From assembly GCF_044647545.1 (NCBI RefSeq), contig NZ_CP172818.1: a stretch of DNA of 64,000 nucleotides; one strand, given 5' to 3'. A program made the translations under genes and the position numbers. The notes under the pieces are model-generated. The model was not told where the DNA came from, did not search any database, and saw only the letters and a program-made list of their open reading frames with translations. Source of the DNA: Escherichia coli. Lineage in GTDB: Bacteria; Pseudomonadota; Gammaproteobacteria; Enterobacterales; Enterobacteriaceae. This document shows, one piece after another, positions 12,227 through 54,910 of this stretch (position 1 is its first letter; each line of letters starts with the position of its first letter).

Positions 12227-12544
12227 AGTTAGCTCCAATTTCCGTAAGGCAAAAAAAAAGAAAGGTAACTTCCCCCGCGAGAGGGAAGTTACCTTTCTCA
12301 TTATCTCTGGTAACTGGAGATAATTTTTAGCATAAGGGCATAAGCGCTAATGTGATCGTAATCACAGTGTGATATTCGTATTATCAAATAATTTTAAAAA
12401 GCAGAAGCGTGACTACTCTCACACAACACCACTGCTTTCCATGTTATTTCTTATTGCAATTACTAGAGACCTGAGAAAAGTAATCCACCTGAAAGGGCGG
12501 CTTACTTTTCTCTTTTTTTTGTCTATTACAAATGGGAATACGAT

Positions 12545-36073: not shown

Positions 36074-36118
36074 AAAGCAACCTCAATAAGAAAAACTGCC
36101 GCGAAGGATAGCAGGAAT

Positions 36119-36483
36119 AAAAAAAGGGAGCACTGTATTCACAGTGCTCCCGGTTCGTTTCGCAGCATTCCAGCTACTTTTGTTGCTCCCTGCTCATCCT
36201 TGACAACTTTTCCTCTGGCCTTGCGGCCAATCGTTCATCCTGAACTATTGCTTCCTGCTCACACCACCCCGATGTGATACTTCATCCTGAAGTGTCCCTG
36301 GCCTTCCTGACCCACCGAATCATCCTGACCGGTTCTCATTCTCCATCCTGGAGGTGTCCTTTAACGCGTCCTGCGTCATCCTCTTCGCTTCATCCAGAAG
36401 CCTTTCCCTGAAACACCATCCTGGTGTGTCCTTCAGAAGTGTCATCATCCTGATGTTCACTTCGTTGTCTGACTCCCTGTCGA
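36119..36483 (-). ncRNA. csrB: CsrB small RNA (CsrA-sequestering)
   Basis: On the + strand, at least 6 perfect CATCCTG (CAGGAUG in the transcript) plus several variant GGA motifs within about 360 nt; terminator gggagcactgtgaatacagtgctccc + U-run at the 3' end (36119-36151). Confidence 0.9.
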
Positions 36484-37307: not shown

Positions 37308-38156
37308 ATGTCTTCTTATGCAAACCATCAGGCACTTGCGGGCCTGACTCTTGGAAAATCAACCGATTACCGGGATACCTATGACGCCAGCCTACTGCAA
37401 GGCGTTCCGCGTAGTCTGAATCGCGATCCGCTGGGTCTGAAAGCGGATAACCTGCCTTTTCACGGTACGGATATCTGGACGCTGTATGAACTTTCCTGGC
37501 TGAATGCGAAAGGTTTGCCGCAGGTCGCCGTCGGTCACGTTGAACTTGATTACACCAGCGCAAATCTGATTGAGTCGAAGAGTTTTAAGCTCTATCTCAA
37601 CAGTTTTAACCAGACGCGTTTTAATAACTGGGATGAGGTGCGCCAGACGCTGGAGCGCGACTTAAGCACTTGCGCTCAGGGTAAGGTTAGCGTGGCGTTA
37701 TATCGTCTTGATGAACTGGAAGGCCAACCGATAGGTCATTTCAATGGCACTTGCATTGATGACCAGGATATCACTATCGATAACTATGAATTCACTACTG
37801 ACTATCTGGAGAATGCCACCAGTGGCGAAAAAGTAGTAGAAGAGACGCTCGTCAGCCACCTGCTGAAATCAAACTGCCTGATCACCCATCAACCAGATTG
37901 GGGATCGATCCAAATTCAGTATCGTGGACGCCAAATTGACAGAGAAAAACTGCTGCGTTACCTGGTCTCTTTCCGTCATCACAACGAGTTCCACGAACAG
38001 TGCGTGGAACGCATCTTTAATGACCTGTTACGCTTCTGCCAGCCAGAAAAATTGAGCGTTTACGCACGTTATACCCGTCGTGGCGGTCTGGACATTAACC
38101 CGTGGCGCAGTAATAACGATTTTGTCCCATCGACCACAAGACTGGTTCGTCAATAA
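37308..38156 (+). CDS. queF: NADPH-dependent 7-cyano-7-deazaguanine reductase
   Basis: 282-aa ORF; two-domain (type II) QueF. Confidence 0.9.
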
Positions 38157-38267
38157 ATTTTTTCTCAATTTTGCGTGCTGGATTCACGCAGAAGGTTGTG
38201 AAAGGTCATCAGGCAGGGCTATTGTAATCAAAGGGAATGACGATATTCGTCCCATAAGGAGTTTTTC

Positions 38268-39632
38268 TTGATTACACATATTAGCCCGCTTGGCTCCATG
38301 GATATGTTGTCGCAGCTGGAAGTGGATATGCTTAAACGCACCGCCAGCAGCGACCTCTATCAACTGTTTCGCAACTGTTCACTTGCCGTACTGAACTCCG
38401 GTAGTTTGACCGATAACAGCAAAGAATTGCTGTCTCGTTTTGAAAATTTCGATATTAACGTCCTGCGCCGTGAACGCGGCGTAAAGCTGGAACTGATTAA
38501 TCCCCCGGAAGAGGCTTTTGTCGATGGGCGAATTATTCGCGCTTTGCAGGCCAACTTGTTCGCGGTTCTGCGTGACATTCTCTTCGTTTACGGGCAAATC
38601 CATAACACCGTTCGTTTTCCCAATCTGAATCTCGACAACTCCGTCCACATCACTAACCTGGTCTTTTCCATCTTGCGTAACGCTCGCGCGCTGCATGTTG
38701 GTGAAGCGCCAAATATGGTGGTCTGCTGGGGCGGGCACTCAATTAACGAAAACGAGTATTTGTATGCCCGTCGCGTCGGGAATCAGCTGGGCCTGCGTGA
38801 GCTGAATATCTGCACCGGCTGTGGTCCGGGAGCGATGGAAGCGCCGATGAAAGGTGCTGCGGTCGGACACGCGCAGCAGCGTTACAAAGACAGTCGCTTT
38901 ATTGGTATGACAGAGCCGTCGATTATCGCCGCTGAACCGCCTAACCCGCTGGTCAACGAATTGATCATCATGCCAGATATCGAAAAACGTCTGGAAGCGT
39001 TTGTCCGTATCGCTCACGGTATCATTATCTTCCCTGGCGGTGTGGGTACAGCAGAAGAGTTGCTGTATTTGCTGGGAATTTTAATGAACCCGGCCAACAA
39101 AGATCAGGTTTTACCATTGATCCTCACCGGCCCGAAAGAGAGCGCCGACTACTTCCGCGTACTGGACGAGTTTGTCGTGCATACGCTGGGTGAAAACGCG
39201 CGCCGCCATTACCGCATCATCATTGATGACGCCGCTGAAGTCGCTCGTCAGATGAAAAAATCGATGCCGCTGGTGAAAGAAAATCGCCGCGACACAGGCG
39301 ATGCCTACAGCTTTAACTGGTCAATGCGCATTGCGCCAGATTTGCAAATGCCGTTTGAGCCGTCTCACGAGAATATGGCTAATCTGAAGCTTTACCCGGA
39401 TCAACCCGTTGAAGTGCTGGCTGCCGACCTGCGCCGTGCGTTCTCCGGTATTGTGGCGGGTAACGTAAAAGAAGTCGGTATTCGCGCCATTGAAGAGTTT
39501 GGTCCTTATAAAATCAACGGCGATAAAGAGATTATGCGTCGTATGGATGACCTGCTACAGGGTTTTGTTGCCCAGCATCGTATGAAGTTGCCAGGCTCAG
39601 CCTACATCCCTTGCTACGAAATCTGCACGTAA
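38268..39632 (+). CDS. ppnN: pyrimidine/purine nucleotide 5'-monophosphate nucleosidase (LOG-like)
   Basis: 454-aa ORF that starts at a TTG codon (ttg att aca cat...); LOG/TIGR00730-like core (PGGxGTxEE). Confidence 0.88.
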
Positions 39633-40187
39633 TCTCCCTCCCCCGGTGACGTTTGTTGCCGGGTTTTCTCGTTTTTGGTCACATACCCATCAATTTATTT
39701 CATTTGTTATATGAATGTTTCTTACCCCCCTCACGCGATAAATATCATTACAGTTAATATGTCATACAATTTATGTTGTAACGCAAACGTTTCCCTATTT
39801 TCATAAACCACATTTTATCGCTATGAAAAAGAAATTATCGCCATGATTAACTAAAAGTATTGATTTTTTCAGTTCAACCTACATATATTGCGCGCCCCGG
39901 AAGAAGTCAGATGTCGTTTAATGGGCAAATATTGCCCTTAAATTCTCTTTTACTTTTGATTTACAGAGTAAAGCGTTGGGATAATCTATCTTCCAAGTAG
40001 ATTATTGTATTTGGGATCAAGATCACTGATAGATACATAACTTGTGTGTATCTTTCCGCCCTCAAATTATTACGGCGGTAAATGATTAAGCCATCGCCGA
40101 TAGACAGATTTCATTTTTACGGTCAGGCACCTTCCCGGGCTGAACTGGCTAAAAGCTGAATTATTTGCATTCCTCCAGGAGAAATAG

Positions 40188-41477
40188 ATGGAAACGACTC
40201 AAACCAGCACGATTGCGTCGAAAGACTCTCGTAGTGCCTGGCGCAAGACAGACACCATGTGGATGCTGGGCCTTTACGGCACGGCAATCGGCGCGGGCGT
40301 GCTGTTCCTGCCAATCAACGCCGGTGTTGGCGGTATGATCCCGCTGATCATCATGGCTATCCTTGCGTTCCCGATGACATTTTTTGCTCACCGCGGCCTG
40401 ACTCGCTTCGTACTGTCTGGTAAAAACCCAGGCGAAGACATCACCGAGGTTGTAGAAGAACACTTTGGTATTGGCGCAGGTAAACTGATTACCCTGCTCT
40501 ACTTCTTCGCTATCTACCCGATCCTGCTGGTTTATAGCGTGGCAATCACCAATACAGTTGAAAGCTTCATGTCTCACCAGCTGGGTATGACACCACCGCC
40601 GCGTGCGATTCTGTCGCTGATCCTGATCGTGGGTATGATGACCATCGTTCGCTTCGGTGAGCAGATGATCGTTAAAGCGATGAGTATTCTGGTATTCCCG
40701 TTTGTTGGCGTACTGATGCTGCTGGCTCTGTACCTGATCCCGCAGTGGAACGGCGCAGCACTGGAAACGCTGTCTCTGGACACTGCATCTGCAACCGGAA
40801 ACGGTCTGTGGATGACCCTGTGGCTGGCAATTCCGGTAATGGTGTTCTCGTTCAACCACTCTCCGATCATCTCTTCTTTCGCCGTTGCGAAGCGTGAAGA
40901 GTACGGCGATATGGCAGAACAGAAATGCTCGAAGATCCTGGCATTCGCACACATCATGATGGTGCTGACCGTAATGTTCTTCGTATTCAGCTGCGTACTG
41001 AGCCTGACTCCGGCAGACCTGGCTGCGGCTAAAGAGCAGAACATCTCGATTCTGTCTTACCTGGCTAACCACTTTAACGCACCGGTTATCGCGTGGATGG
41101 CTCCGATTATCGCGATTATCGCTATCACCAAATCCTTCCTCGGCCACTACCTGGGCGCACGTGAAGGCTTCAACGGTATGGTGATTAAATCTCTGCGTGG
41201 TAAAGGTAAGTCTATCGAAATCAACAAGCTGAACCGTATCACTGCGCTGTTCATGCTGGTAACGACCTGGATTGTTGCCACCCTGAACCCGAGCATCCTG
41301 GGTATGATTGAAACCCTGGGCGGCCCAATCATCGCGATGATCCTGTTCCTGATGCCGATGTACGCAATTCAGAAAGTACCGGCAATGCGTAAGTACAGCG
41401 GTCACATCAGCAACGTATTCGTTGTCGTGATGGGTCTGATTGCAATCTCCGCAATCTTCTACTCTCTGTTCAGCTAA
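40188..41477 (+). CDS. sdaC: serine:H+ symporter
   Basis: 429-aa hydrophobic ORF beginning [31 protein letters not shown]. Confidence 0.95.
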
Positions 41478-41534
41478 GTCCTTTCGCGCCGCTTTCGGGC
41501 GGCGCTTCCTCCGTTTTAACGCGATGTATTTCCT

Positions 41535-42902
41535 ATGATTAGCGTATTCGATATTTTCAAAATCGGCATTGGCCCTTCCAGTTCTCATACCGTTGGACCA
41601 ATGAAAGCGGGTAAACAATTTACCGACGATCTGATTGCCCGTAACCTGCTTAAAGACGTGACCCGCGTGGTGGTTGACGTGTACGGCTCGCTCTCTCTGA
41701 CCGGTAAAGGCCACCACACAGATATCGCCATAATTATGGGTCTGGCGGGTAACCTGCCGGATACCGTGGATATCGATTCCATCCCTGGTTTTATTCAGGA
41801 TGTGAATACTCATGGTCGCCTGATGCTGGCAAACGGTCAGCATGAAGTGGAGTTCCCGGTTGATCAGTGCATGAACTTCCATGCCGACAACCTTTCTCTG
41901 CATGAAAACGGTATGCGCATTACCGCACTGGCGGGCGATAAAGTCGTTTACAGCCAGACTTACTACTCTATTGGCGGTGGCTTTATCGTTGATGAAGAGC
42001 ATTTTGGTCAGCAGGATAGCGCACCGGTTGAAGTTCCTTATCCGTACAGTTCAGCAGCCGATCTGCAAAAACATTGTCAGGAAACCGGGCTGTCACTCTC
42101 TGGCCTGATGATGAAAAACGAGCTGGCACTGCACAGCAAAGAAGAGCTGGAACAGCACCTGGCGAACGTCTGGGAAGTCATGCGTGGCGGTATTGAGCGC
42201 GGTATTTCCACCGAAGGCGTGTTGCCTGGCAAACTGCGCGTTCCACGCCGTGCTGCGGCACTACGCCGGATGCTGGTCAGCCAGGATAAAACCACCACTG
42301 ACCCGATGGCGGTTGTTGACTGGATCAACATGTTTGCACTGGCAGTGAACGAAGAGAATGCTGCTGGCGGTCGTGTGGTGACTGCGCCGACTAACGGTGC
42401 GTGCGGGATTATTCCGGCCGTGCTGGCGTACTACGACAAGTTTATCCGCGAAGTGAACGCTAACTCACTGGCTCGTTACCTGCTGGTAGCCAGCGCCATT
42501 GGTTCTCTTTATAAGATGAACGCGTCGATTTCTGGTGCCGAAGTCGGCTGCCAGGGTGAAGTCGGCGTGGCGTGCTCAATGGCGGCAGCTGGTCTGGCAG
42601 AACTGTTAGGCGCAAGCCCGGCGCAGGTATGCATCGCGGCGGAAATCGCCATGGAGCACAACCTCGGTCTGACGTGTGACCCGGTTGCCGGACAGGTCCA
42701 GGTACCGTGCATCGAGCGTAACGCCATTGCGGCAGTAAAAGCGGTGAACGCCGCGCGTATGGCGCTGCGCCGTACCAGCGAGCCGCGCGTCTGCCTCGAT
42801 AAAGTTATCGAGACCATGTACGAAACAGGTAAAGATATGAACGCCAAGTACCGCGAAACCTCTCGCGGCGGCCTGGCAATGAAGATCGTTGCCTGCGATT
42901 AA
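41535..42902 (+). CDS. sdaB: L-serine dehydratase 2
   Basis: 455-aa ORF beginning MISVFDIFKIGIGPSSSHTVGPM (Fe-S L-serine dehydratase). Confidence 0.95.
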   Translation: MISVFDIFKIGIGPSSSHTVGPMKAGKQFTDDLIARNLLKDVTRVVVDVYGSLSLTGKGHHTDIAIIMGLAGNLPDTVDIDSIPGFIQDVNTHGRLMLANGQHEVEFPVDQCMNFHADNLSLHENGMRITALAGDKVVYSQTYYSIGGGFIVDEEHFGQQDSAPVEVPYPYSSAADLQKHCQETGLSLSGLMMKNELALHSKEELEQHLANVWEVMRGGIERGISTEGVLPGKLRVPRRAAALRRMLVSQDKTTTDPMAVVDWINMFALAVNEENAAGGRVVTAPTNGACGIIPAVLAYYDKFIREVNANSLARYLLVASAIGSLYKMNASISGAEVGCQGEVGVACSMAAAGLAELLGASPAQVCIAAEIAMEHNLGLTCDPVAGQVQVPCIERNAIAAVKAVNAARMALRRTSEPRVCLDKVIETMYETGKDMNAKYRETSRGGLAMKIVACD

Positions 42903-50896: not shown

Positions 50897-51319
50897 ATGC
50901 TGAAAACAATTTCGCCGTTAATTTCTCCCGAACTATTGAAAGTGCTGGCAGAGATGGGGCATGGAGATGAAATTATTTTTTCCGATGCTCACTTTCCCGC
51001 CCATTCGATGGGACCGCAGGTGATCCGCGCTGATGGCCTGTTGGTGAGTGACTTGCTCCAGGCGATTATCCCGTTATTTGAACTGGACAGTTATGCACCG
51101 CCGCTGGTGATGATGGCGGCGGTAGAAGGTGACACTCTCGATCCTGAAGTAGAACGACGTTATCGTAATGCGCTTTCACTACAAGCCCCCTGTCCTGACA
51201 TCATCCGCATCAATCGTTTTGCGTTTTATGAACGGGCGCAAAAAGCCTTTGCGATCGTTATCACAGGCGAACGAGCGAAGTACGGGAATATTCTTTTAAA
51301 AAAAGGGGTAACACCGTAA
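50897..51319 (+). CDS. fucU: L-fucose mutarotase
   Basis: 140-aa ORF (RbsD/FucU family). Confidence 0.92.
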
Positions 51320-54704: not shown

Positions 54705-54910
54705 ACTTCCTGAGCCGGAACGAAAAGTTTTATCGGAATGCGTGTTCTGGTGAACTTTTGGCTTACGGTTGTGATGTTGTGTTGTTGTGTTTGCAATTGG
54801 TCTGCGATTCAGACCATGGTAGCAAAGCTACCTTTTTTCACTTCCTGTACATTTACCCTGTCTGTCCATAGTGATTAATGTAGCACCGCCTAATTGCGGT
54901 GCTTTTTTTT
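54705..54910 (+). ncRNA. gcvB: GcvB small RNA
   Basis: acttcctgagccggaacgaaaag...; GU-rich seed gttgtgatgttgtgttgttgtgtttgc; terminator gcaccgcctaattgcggtgc + T8; divergent from gcvA. Confidence 0.92.

Follow-up and report, generated by a model that had tools for sequence, protein, structure and literature searches.

What occupies the long stretch of DNA between ppnN and sdaC in Escherichia coli? In the 64,000-nucleotide stretch analyzed here (hereafter the window), the genes surrounding this locus are arranged in the order queF-ppnN-sdaC-sdaB. According to the list of open reading frames (ORFs), ppnN (also referred to as ygdH; plus strand, 38268–39632, stop codon included) is separated from the ATG of sdaC (plus strand, 40188) by positions 39633–40187. 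A preliminary description made from the sequence had singled out this gap as AT-rich, lacking any ORF and long for a promoter region, and had suggested that it could carry a long 5′ untranslated region (UTR) or a small RNA.

The ppnN–sdaC gap is long, conserved and non-coding

The length given in the preliminary description, about 555 bp, proved exact, and the gap is indeed AT-rich (GC 0.33–0.41 in round figures), with a GC content per 200-bp segment of 0.325–0.41, compared with ~0.47–0.58 in the flanking genes. It is also unusually long, as had been noted, ranking second among ~36 gaps between genes within the 40 kb around it. The yqcC–syd gap (621 bp), which contains CsrB, is the only longer one; the gcvA–ygdI gap (350 bp) contains GcvB, and the divergent fucA/fucP control region, at 546 bp, is comparable in length. 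As other long gaps do harbour small RNAs, CsrB and GcvB, suspecting a hidden element between ppnN and sdaC was reasonable.

In the RefSeq annotations of K-12 and of FDAARGOS_497, the latter 100% identical to the window over the ppnN–sdaC region, the same genes flank the gap and the gap itself contains no feature. The gap region is carried by 5425 of 5426 complete E. coli genomes and is core E. coli sequence. Scanning species-representative genomes yielded 80 SdaC-encoding loci, 76 of them with ppnN immediately upstream, and the set used for comparison consisted of 77 Enterobacteriaceae sequences aligned with MAFFT. Across these 77 Enterobacteriaceae with ppnN–sdaC synteny, the gap measures 436–648 bp, which, together with its near-universal presence in E. 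coli, argues that its length is no accident of one strain.

The earlier statement that the gap holds no ORF is right for practical purposes. ORFs of 25–46 amino acids can be called mechanically, yet none is conserved among the 77 taxa, in which near-stop-free stretches extend over at most 26 codons and 3-base periodicity across the gap is absent. For the upstream ORF (uORF) at 40082–40159 (25 codons), only 9% of taxa retain the G of its ATG (40082); we discarded this uORF along with the remaining small ORFs for lack of conservation.

The ppnN transcript ends at the start of the gap, followed by two YieP sites

Immediately downstream of ppnN, the terminator-like scan identified a GC-rich hairpin (39642–39663) followed by the U-tract TTTTCTCGTT, together forming the ppnN terminator (plus strand, 39642–39668). 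Term-seq data place a “primary” ygdH 3′ end at K-12 position 2927709/10, where bicyclomycin increases read-through (Adams 2021). In the window/K-12 alignment this position corresponds to ~39668, just past the hairpin and U-tract, so that the element displays the GC-rich hairpin, the U-tract and the mapped 3′ end of an intrinsic terminator.

Further downstream, an orphan protein-occupancy peak upstream of sdaC has been described, for which YieP was identified by pulldown-MS, EMSA and a ChIP-exo motif (Freddolino 2021). Scrambling both YieP sites caused a drop of sdaCp-lacZ expression similar to that caused by yieP deletion, and YieP is an activator (Freddolino 2021). Site 1, ATTTGTTATATGAAT, which we located in the window by its published sequence (39702–39716), is poorly conserved beyond Escherichia, and site 2, ATATGTCATACAATT (39757–39771), lies below the IPOD-HR and ChIP-exo peak (Freddolino 2021).

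A 335-bp block of invariant length precedes and enters the predicted leader

Length variation among the 77 taxa is confined to the ppnN-proximal ~170 bp, which are indel-rich and hardly alignable, and to the 3′ half of the leader. Between the two lies a length-invariant control block of 335 bp (39777–40112), in which no indel occurs in any of the 77 taxa. The gap fraction in the MAFFT alignment is 0.00–0.01 from ~39803 to ~40110, and ungapped sequences anchored on the CRP box give the same conserved islands. Identity within the indel-free block is often modest, the best-conserved stretch being 39995–40061. Within Escherichia, 70 of 108 variable positions fall in the first 200 bp of the gap, and a ATGGTAGCCTTCGCGCC block that is conserved in other genera is replaced by the perfect hairpin GGGCAAATATTGCCC (39923–37).

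The block contains a site resembling the Lrp consensus, CAGAGTAAAGCGTTG (39964–39978), which matches 9 of the 15 positions of YAGHAWATTWTDCTR, the sequence that we take to be the Lrp consensus; the corresponding match is 10–11 of 15 in Salmonella and Enterobacter. Lrp ChIP enrichment upstream of sdaC has been reported, and EcoCyc annotates an Lrp site ~200 bp downstream of the YieP peak (Freddolino 2021). The Lrp-like site at 39964–78 fits the place of this annotated site.

Near the upstream border of the block, we found a candidate PurR operator, recognized by sequence only, in the form of the palindrome ACGCAAACGTTTCCCT (39781–39796), which differs at 2 positions from ACGCAAACGTTTGCGT, presumably the PurR operator consensus. 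It is the sole match in the 64-kb window, against an analytic expectation of 0.03 per window. At up to 4 mismatches, the box is present in 49/77 taxa, always 231–234 bp upstream of the CRP box. None of the papers searched links PurR with sdaC or ygdH, and the box could also serve another protein of the LacI family.

The conserved CRP site suggests a class II promoter close to sdaC

sdaC is induced by cAMP, its promoter has been described as Crp-regulated, and CRP ChIP-seq in enterotoxigenic E. coli (ETEC) revealed a peak at sdaC with the predicted site AGTGATCTTGATCTCA. This sequence is the reverse complement of positions 40012–27 save for one base (40014, G in the window and A in K-12). The CRP site TGGGATCAAGATCACT (40012–40027, centre 40019.5) is therefore marked by both the ChIP-seq peak and conservation, with the box TGnGATC..GATCACT present in 77/77 taxa. 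The CRP-consensus pattern alone shows no enrichment in the window (26 matches versus 26 expected). A second, weaker CRP-like site, TGATAGATACATAACT (40027–40042), is listed below the same ETEC ChIP-seq peak; it is poorly conserved in Klebsiella-type sequences and its centre would fall at −26.5 relative to the predicted start, which makes an activating role improbable.

Conservation points to a proximal core promoter (plus strand, 40026–40054) composed of CTGATA (40026–31), a 17-bp spacer and TATCTT (40049–54). Within the 335-bp block, TATCTT is the sole TAnnnT hexamer kept in 77/77 taxa, and even its diverged versions, TACATT in Kluyvera and TATCGT in Pseudescherichia, keep T1, A2 and T6. The −35-like CTGATA, which scores 4/6, overlaps the CRP box; the proximal promoter thus combines a recognizable TAnnnT −10 element with a weak −35 element. 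TGTATC follows the start of the CRP box at an invariant 35 bp in 77/77 taxa, and in all of them the CRP centre precedes the first −10 base by 29.5 bp, which, relative to a predicted start, is the class II spacing. As a class II position is defined in the literature by CRP centred at −41.5, this spacing predicts a class II arrangement in which transcription of sdaC would start near 40061 (K-12 ~2928102).

The region of the predicted +1 reads CCCU, and pyrimidine starts are less common, which counts against a start near 40061. We also considered an alternative proximal promoter with the −10 element AATTAT (40065–70), for which the CRP-like boxes would fall at ~−57.5 and −42.5, and rejected it as the main promoter. 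AATTAT is less conserved (.A...T in 65/77 taxa, mean score 5.6/12), and a start set by it would remove the 5′ arm of the covarying hairpin A described below, lending mild support to the start near 40061.

A distal promoter-like element is restricted to few lineages

The best sigma70 match within the gap, scoring 9/12 in the promoter scan, lies further upstream (plus strand, 39860–39889) and consists of TTGATT-18-TATATT with a GC-rich discriminator. Its −10 element TATATT occupies 39884–89, and the implied start at ~39896–39901 would generate a leader of ~290 nt. Two experimental papers take this element as “the” sdaC promoter, one of them being Frendorf 2024, where it is treated as PsdaC. In addition, two independent cya-suppressor insertions between ygdH and sdaC, +A (K-12 2927924) and +ATT (2927928), increase expression; both map inside or adjoining the TATATT hexamer in the window/K-12 alignment. 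The authors who use the name PsdaC state that the sdaC promoter lacks experimental verification and that its annotated transcription start site (TSS) is computational.

The main sdaC transcript of wild-type E. coli might accordingly begin at this distal promoter (~39896–39901) and carry a ~290-nt 5′ UTR, in which case the CRP site and the conserved islands would act inside transcribed DNA or RNA. We consider this rather unlikely. Besides being the best sigma70 match in the gap and the target of the expression-raising insertions, the distal element has the YieP activator sites upstream of it, sdaC expression is 20-fold higher in glucose-rich medium, and the resulting 304-nt RNA folds somewhat better than shuffled sequences (z = −1.85, 5/100), a borderline result. 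However, a start at the distal element places the CRP site at ~+120, from where CRP could not activate that promoter, and the distal −10 (.A...T) is found in 21/77 taxa only, whereas the proximal −10 and the CRP box are universal. The up-mutations, moreover, were selected in a cAMP-less strain in which a CRP-dependent promoter is dead, and they may therefore have strengthened a weak or cryptic promoter. Finally, 39897–40060 carries no signal of compensatory change, the test windows at 39900 and 39940 being flat and the inverted repeat at 39983–40003 giving a weak result (80/5000).

The narrow distribution of the distal −10 and the position of CRP at ~+120 of the distal start together indicate that the CRP-dependent promoter would be the proximal one, and it is improbable that the published PsdaC and the CRP-dependent promoter are the same element. 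A universally conserved, putative class II promoter 165 bp downstream of the distal element would bring the promoter map into agreement with the site found by CRP ChIP. The distal promoter-like element, which occurs mainly in Escherichia and Salmonella, may then represent a lineage-restricted promoter, possibly one that depends on YieP. Expression of sdaC is highest in glucose-rich medium (20-fold; Freddolino 2021), conditions under which the least CRP activity is expected, so that in E. coli some promoter independent of CRP must contribute. A YieP-dependent distal promoter would explain this high expression, and in the absence of cAMP the distal element would be the obvious target for up-mutations. 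We thus infer two promoters for sdaC, a proximal CRP-dependent one and a distal, lineage-restricted one.

The sdaC leader contains covarying hairpins and the ArcZ pairing site

The distance from TGTATC to the ATG is 136–146 nt in most taxa and 119–123 nt in the Klebsiella group, and in E. coli this spacing gives a predicted sdaC 5′ UTR of ~127 nt (plus strand, 40061–40187). The proposal of a long 5′ UTR in the preliminary description is borne out in part. A leader certainly exists, as the published ArcZ pairing and the compensatory changes in its hairpin demonstrate; however, its best-supported length is ~127 nt and not ~500 nt, or ~290 nt if the distal element (39860–39889) is active in the wild type. 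A TSS immediately upstream of sdaC, which had been named as the outcome contradicting a long leader, does not agree with our prediction, in which transcription starts more than 100 nt upstream.

In the minimum free energy (MFE) fold of the E. coli leader, hairpin A (plus strand, 40073–40099) begins 12 nt past the predicted start and pairs CGGCGGU (40073–79) with AUCGCCG (40093–99) in a 7-bp stem closed by a 13-nt A/U-rich loop, which is AAAAAUUAUAAAAAA-like in other genera. The hairpin is present in nearly all of 52 non-redundant representative leaders with differing stem sequences, such as CGGCG/CGCCG, GUUGG/CCAAC, UUGCGG/CCGCAA, UUACAG/CUGUAA and ACGGGC/GCCCGU, among others. We assessed pairing by an alignment-free test, in which each 5′ arm is paired with the 3′ arm of the same leader and with those of other taxa, and the resulting duplex energies are compared. 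For hairpin A, cognate arms reach −8.09 kcal/mol and non-cognate arms −5.99 kcal/mol, a difference attained in 0/5000 permutations (shared ancestry uncorrected), and the result is unchanged on 50 unique haplotypes.

A second hairpin, hairpin B (plus strand, 40105–40167; E. coli MFE fold), is longer and irregular and lies just 5′ of the ribosome-binding site. Its arms are GUCAGG/CCUGAC in Salmonella, Citrobacter, Enterobacter and Kosakonia, with the compensatory variants GCCAGU/ACUGGC and AGUCGG/CCGACU, and the cognate energy (−6.88 versus −4.28 kcal/mol for non-cognate arms) was again matched in 0/5000 permutations with shared ancestry uncorrected. Hairpin B has been deleted from the leaders of the Klebsiella, Yokenella and Trabulsiella groups, and its E. 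coli version is weak. No cognate-pairing effect appeared in six control windows with matching geometry. The stability of the 142-nt E. coli leader is no better than that of shuffled sequences (z = +0.48), and RNAalifold on a MAFFT alignment of the 52 leaders found nothing but a helix of 3 bp at the ribosome-binding site, missing the hairpins because their stems slide relative to the conserved loop. Structure and conservation analysis, which the preliminary description had recommended, thus yielded leader hairpins with compensatory changes, while the overall stability is ordinary and the RNAalifold output nearly empty.

At the 3′ end of the leader, the ArcZ pairing site CCAGGAGAAAUA (plus strand, 40175–40186), defined by the literature and by complementarity, overlaps the Shine-Dalgarno GGAG (40178–81). 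ArcZ has been reported to pair at −13 to −2 of sdaC and to repress sdaC in both Salmonella and E. coli. Read directly, ArcZ GAUUUCCCUGG forms 10 pairs with the target CCAGGAGAAAU (40175–85), with one bulge, and TTCCTCCAGGAGA is nearly invariant across taxa. RNAduplex energies for ArcZ and the leader are no better than those for shuffled targets and are dominated by unrealistic long interior loops; being uninformative, they leave the pairing to rest on the literature. The distal face of Hfq binds A-rich ARN motifs. The reading that we favour is that hairpin A would provide an ARN-type Hfq platform for ArcZ action, a stabilizer of the 5′ end, or both.

It is very unlikely that the leader instead acts as a riboswitch or attenuator, or encodes a leader peptide (uORF 40082–40159), that senses serine. 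Its hairpins are conserved with compensatory changes, many genera have a U-run after hairpin B, just before the ribosome-binding site, and a 25-amino-acid ORF is present in E. coli, all of which speak in its favour. However, the leader matches no Rfam family and Term-seq detects no 3′ end in it in E. coli; only 9% of taxa retain the G of the uORF start codon, which lies in the loop of hairpin A; hairpin B, divergent in E. coli, is missing through deletion from whole genera; and no alternative (antiterminator) pairing was identified. A broad literature search found no paper on an sdaC leader, uORF or riboswitch.

The gap shows no sign of a separate small RNA gene

The suggestion that the gap may carry a small RNA found no support. 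An Rfam search that detects both CsrB and GcvB elsewhere in the window gives no match in 38000–42000, even with the threshold relaxed to E≤10. The only Term-seq 3′ end in K-12 2927700–2928299 is that of the ppnN terminator, with none in 2927711–2928228, and a terminator scan of the gap likewise called only the ppnN hairpin. One could still envisage an independent small RNA transcribed from the distal promoter and ending at the hairpin GGGCAAAUAUUGCCC (39923–37) or at the inverted repeat 39983–40003, since other long gaps of the window contain CsrB and GcvB and since these terminator-like hairpins, followed by U-rich sequence, lie 30–110 nt downstream of the distal promoter. We regard this as highly improbable. 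In addition to the Rfam and Term-seq results, neither hairpin was called by the terminator scan and the distal promoter is missing from most taxa. The 39923–37 hairpin is Escherichia-specific, with unrelated conserved sequence at this place in other genera, and the inverted repeat pairs weakly in the cognate test (80/5000), so that we set it aside as an RNA hairpin or terminator. A separate small RNA gene in the gap is therefore unlikely.

Least credible of all is the view that the length merely reflects non-functional AT-rich spacer (e.g., H-NS-bound filler) with a simple promoter beside sdaC, which agrees with the poor conservation, indels and AT-richness of the ppnN-proximal ~170 bp, yet not with ~400 bp upstream of the ATG that are fixed in length and hold several conserved islands, with regulator sites mapped experimentally, some of them in the variable part, or with the drop in expression upon scrambling of the YieP sites (Freddolino 2021).

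Discussion

Collectively, these observations make it probable that the ppnN–sdaC gap is the control region of sdaCB, which serves serine uptake and deamination, plus the end of the ppnN transcript. Regulatory sequence acting at the level of DNA (YieP, Lrp, CRP and promoter elements) and the ppnN terminator account for most of its length. From 5′ to 3′, the proposed order comprises the ppnN terminator; a variable AT-rich spacer with, in E. coli, two YieP sites; the 335-bp block, which would contain the PurR-like box, the distal sigma70-like promoter, one or more Lrp sites, the CRP site and the proximal promoter; and the ~127-nt leader. In this model, CRP-cAMP bound at −41.5 would overlap the weak −35 element and recruit RNA polymerase to TATCTT, so that transcription would start near 40061. 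The leader would present a hairpin with an A-rich loop first, then a further hairpin ahead of the ribosome-binding site and, last, the Shine-Dalgarno region, where the Hfq-dependent small RNA ArcZ would pair and thereby block translation.

Much of this is already known, namely the terminator 3′ end, the binding and effect of YieP, the occupancy by Lrp and CRP, repression by ArcZ, and the up-mutations in the distal −10. To this, sequence comparison now adds a predicted start site in a putative class II geometry, the leader hairpin A, the PurR-like box and the block of fixed length. These additions are modest refinements, and the region is ordinary if elaborate, with its main components published. 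To our knowledge, an indel-free 335-bp stretch with a PurR-type box 232 bp from the CRP box has not been described for sdaC or for promoters of the tdcABC/dadAX type. Tentatively, and with less than even confidence, we propose a joint reading in which the PurR-type operator belongs to a phased or looped complex of Lrp, CRP and a LacI-family protein, and hairpin A is an Hfq or ribosome platform or a stability element. In that reading, the 232-bp spacing (~22 helical turns) within an indel-free 335-bp stretch would imply such a phased or looped complex. If true, the nucleoprotein complex would couple purine status to serine catabolism, and hairpin A would serve ArcZ-dependent control.

SdaC and SdaB set the rate of serine removal in E. 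coli, and this rate has consequences for growth yield, for lysis when glucose runs out and for colonisation of the gut. For genome scans the lesson is a negative one, as a terminator, a multi-regulator promoter and a leader explain the gap and no new RNA gene is needed. The PurR-like box, the fixed-length architecture and the covarying hairpin are testable additions to a well-studied operon.

A comparison with known systems shows both similarities and differences. Like the CsrB and GcvB loci, the ppnN–sdaC gap is long and flanked by unrelated genes; unlike them, it has no Rfam match, no terminator 3′ end of its own and no conserved promoter–terminator pair. The ArcZ targets tpx and STM3216 share with sdaC the pairing of the small RNA across the Shine-Dalgarno region and an A-rich element upstream. 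In sdaC, the A-rich tract is located in the loop of a covariation-supported hairpin ~90 nt upstream of the pairing site, where a role in Hfq binding would be plausible.

PurR operators of the purine regulon are 16-bp palindromes around a central CG. In E. coli, the PurR-like box resembles them at 14 of 16 positions, among them the central CG and the left half ACGCAAAC, which is the better conserved of the two, and its variants in other genera also resemble known PurR operators. However, it lies ~270 bp upstream of the predicted start and ~110 bp upstream of the distal start, which is not a classical position for repression.

galP1 and pmelR are textbook class II CRP promoters. The predicted proximal promoter of sdaC resembles the class in the spacing between the CRP centre and the −10 element, its weak −35 element, and its CRP occupancy together with cAMP induction. 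galP1 has a correctly placed extended −10 TG, whereas the proximal promoter of sdaC has none. It further differs from these examples in being embedded in a much more extensive region under several regulators, 165 bp downstream of a promoter-like element that is independent of CRP. In this respect, it resembles the amino-acid catabolic control regions that are under CRP and Lrp, such as those of tdcABC and dadAX. Like them, sdaC has a long AT-rich upstream region that combines carbon status (CRP) with amino-acid status (Lrp), with YieP as a further activator.

An indel-free block in the ppnN–sdaC gap

Within the 555-bp gap between ppnN and sdaC (39633-40187), a non-coding block of 335 bp (39777-40112) carries zero indels across 77 Enterobacteriaceae sharing the ppnN–sdaC synteny, though its sequence identity is only modest, and all differences in gap length among these taxa are confined to the parts outside it. 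One possible cause of this fixed length is protein phasing on the DNA. Downstream of the YieP sites and upstream of the distal promoter lies a predicted PurR-operator-like palindrome (39781-39796); in the cross-taxon comparison it is kept in 49 of the 77 taxa, with a fixed distance of 231-234 bp to the CRP box (40012-40027). A literature search for a link between the PurR-like box and sdaC found none. Escherichia carries a perfect hairpin, GGGCAAATATTGCCC, at 39919-39937, followed by T-rich sequence; at this position, other genera carry an unrelated conserved block, ATGGTAGCCTTCGCGCC.

Among the 5426 complete E. coli genomes searched, one (NZ_CP195448.1) matches only 61% of the gap, another has no gap match at all, and one copy of the gap sequence resides on a plasmid. 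It is possible that rare strains have undergone an insertion or rearrangement in the ppnN–sdaC gap.

Other regulatory elements and transcript ends

Rfam matches place CsrB on the minus strand in the yqcC–syd gap (36116-36475) and GcvB on the plus strand in the gcvA–ygdI gap (54705-54910); the PGAP table for FDAARGOS_497, the identical genome, lists neither of them. The window also holds a perfect CRP consensus, TGTGATCGTAATCACA (12351-12366), and a near-perfect one, TGCGATCGTTATCACA (51250-51265); the ETEC ChIP-seq data list these CRP sites under ygcW/yqcE and fucU/fucR. In the downstream serine operon, Term-seq (Adams 2021) mapped one 3' end to the sdaC–sdaB spacer (K-12 2929551; spacer at window 41478-41534), 25 nt upstream of sdaB, and two within the sdaC ORF, at K-12 2928350, 121 nt into the ORF, and K-12 2928864. 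Internal partial termination or processing of the sdaC–sdaB operon is possible.

GGA motifs in the sdaC leader

Comparison of window 40100-40165 with other loci, including L010, L022 and L006, reveals that, in most genera, the second leader hairpin has a conserved GGA (CAUUGGAUU) in its loop. This loop GGA has been lost from the E. coli version of the hairpin (40105-40167). Besides the loop GGA of most genera, the SD (GGAG, 40178-40181 in E. coli) holds a second GGA, an arrangement that resembles paired CsrA sites.
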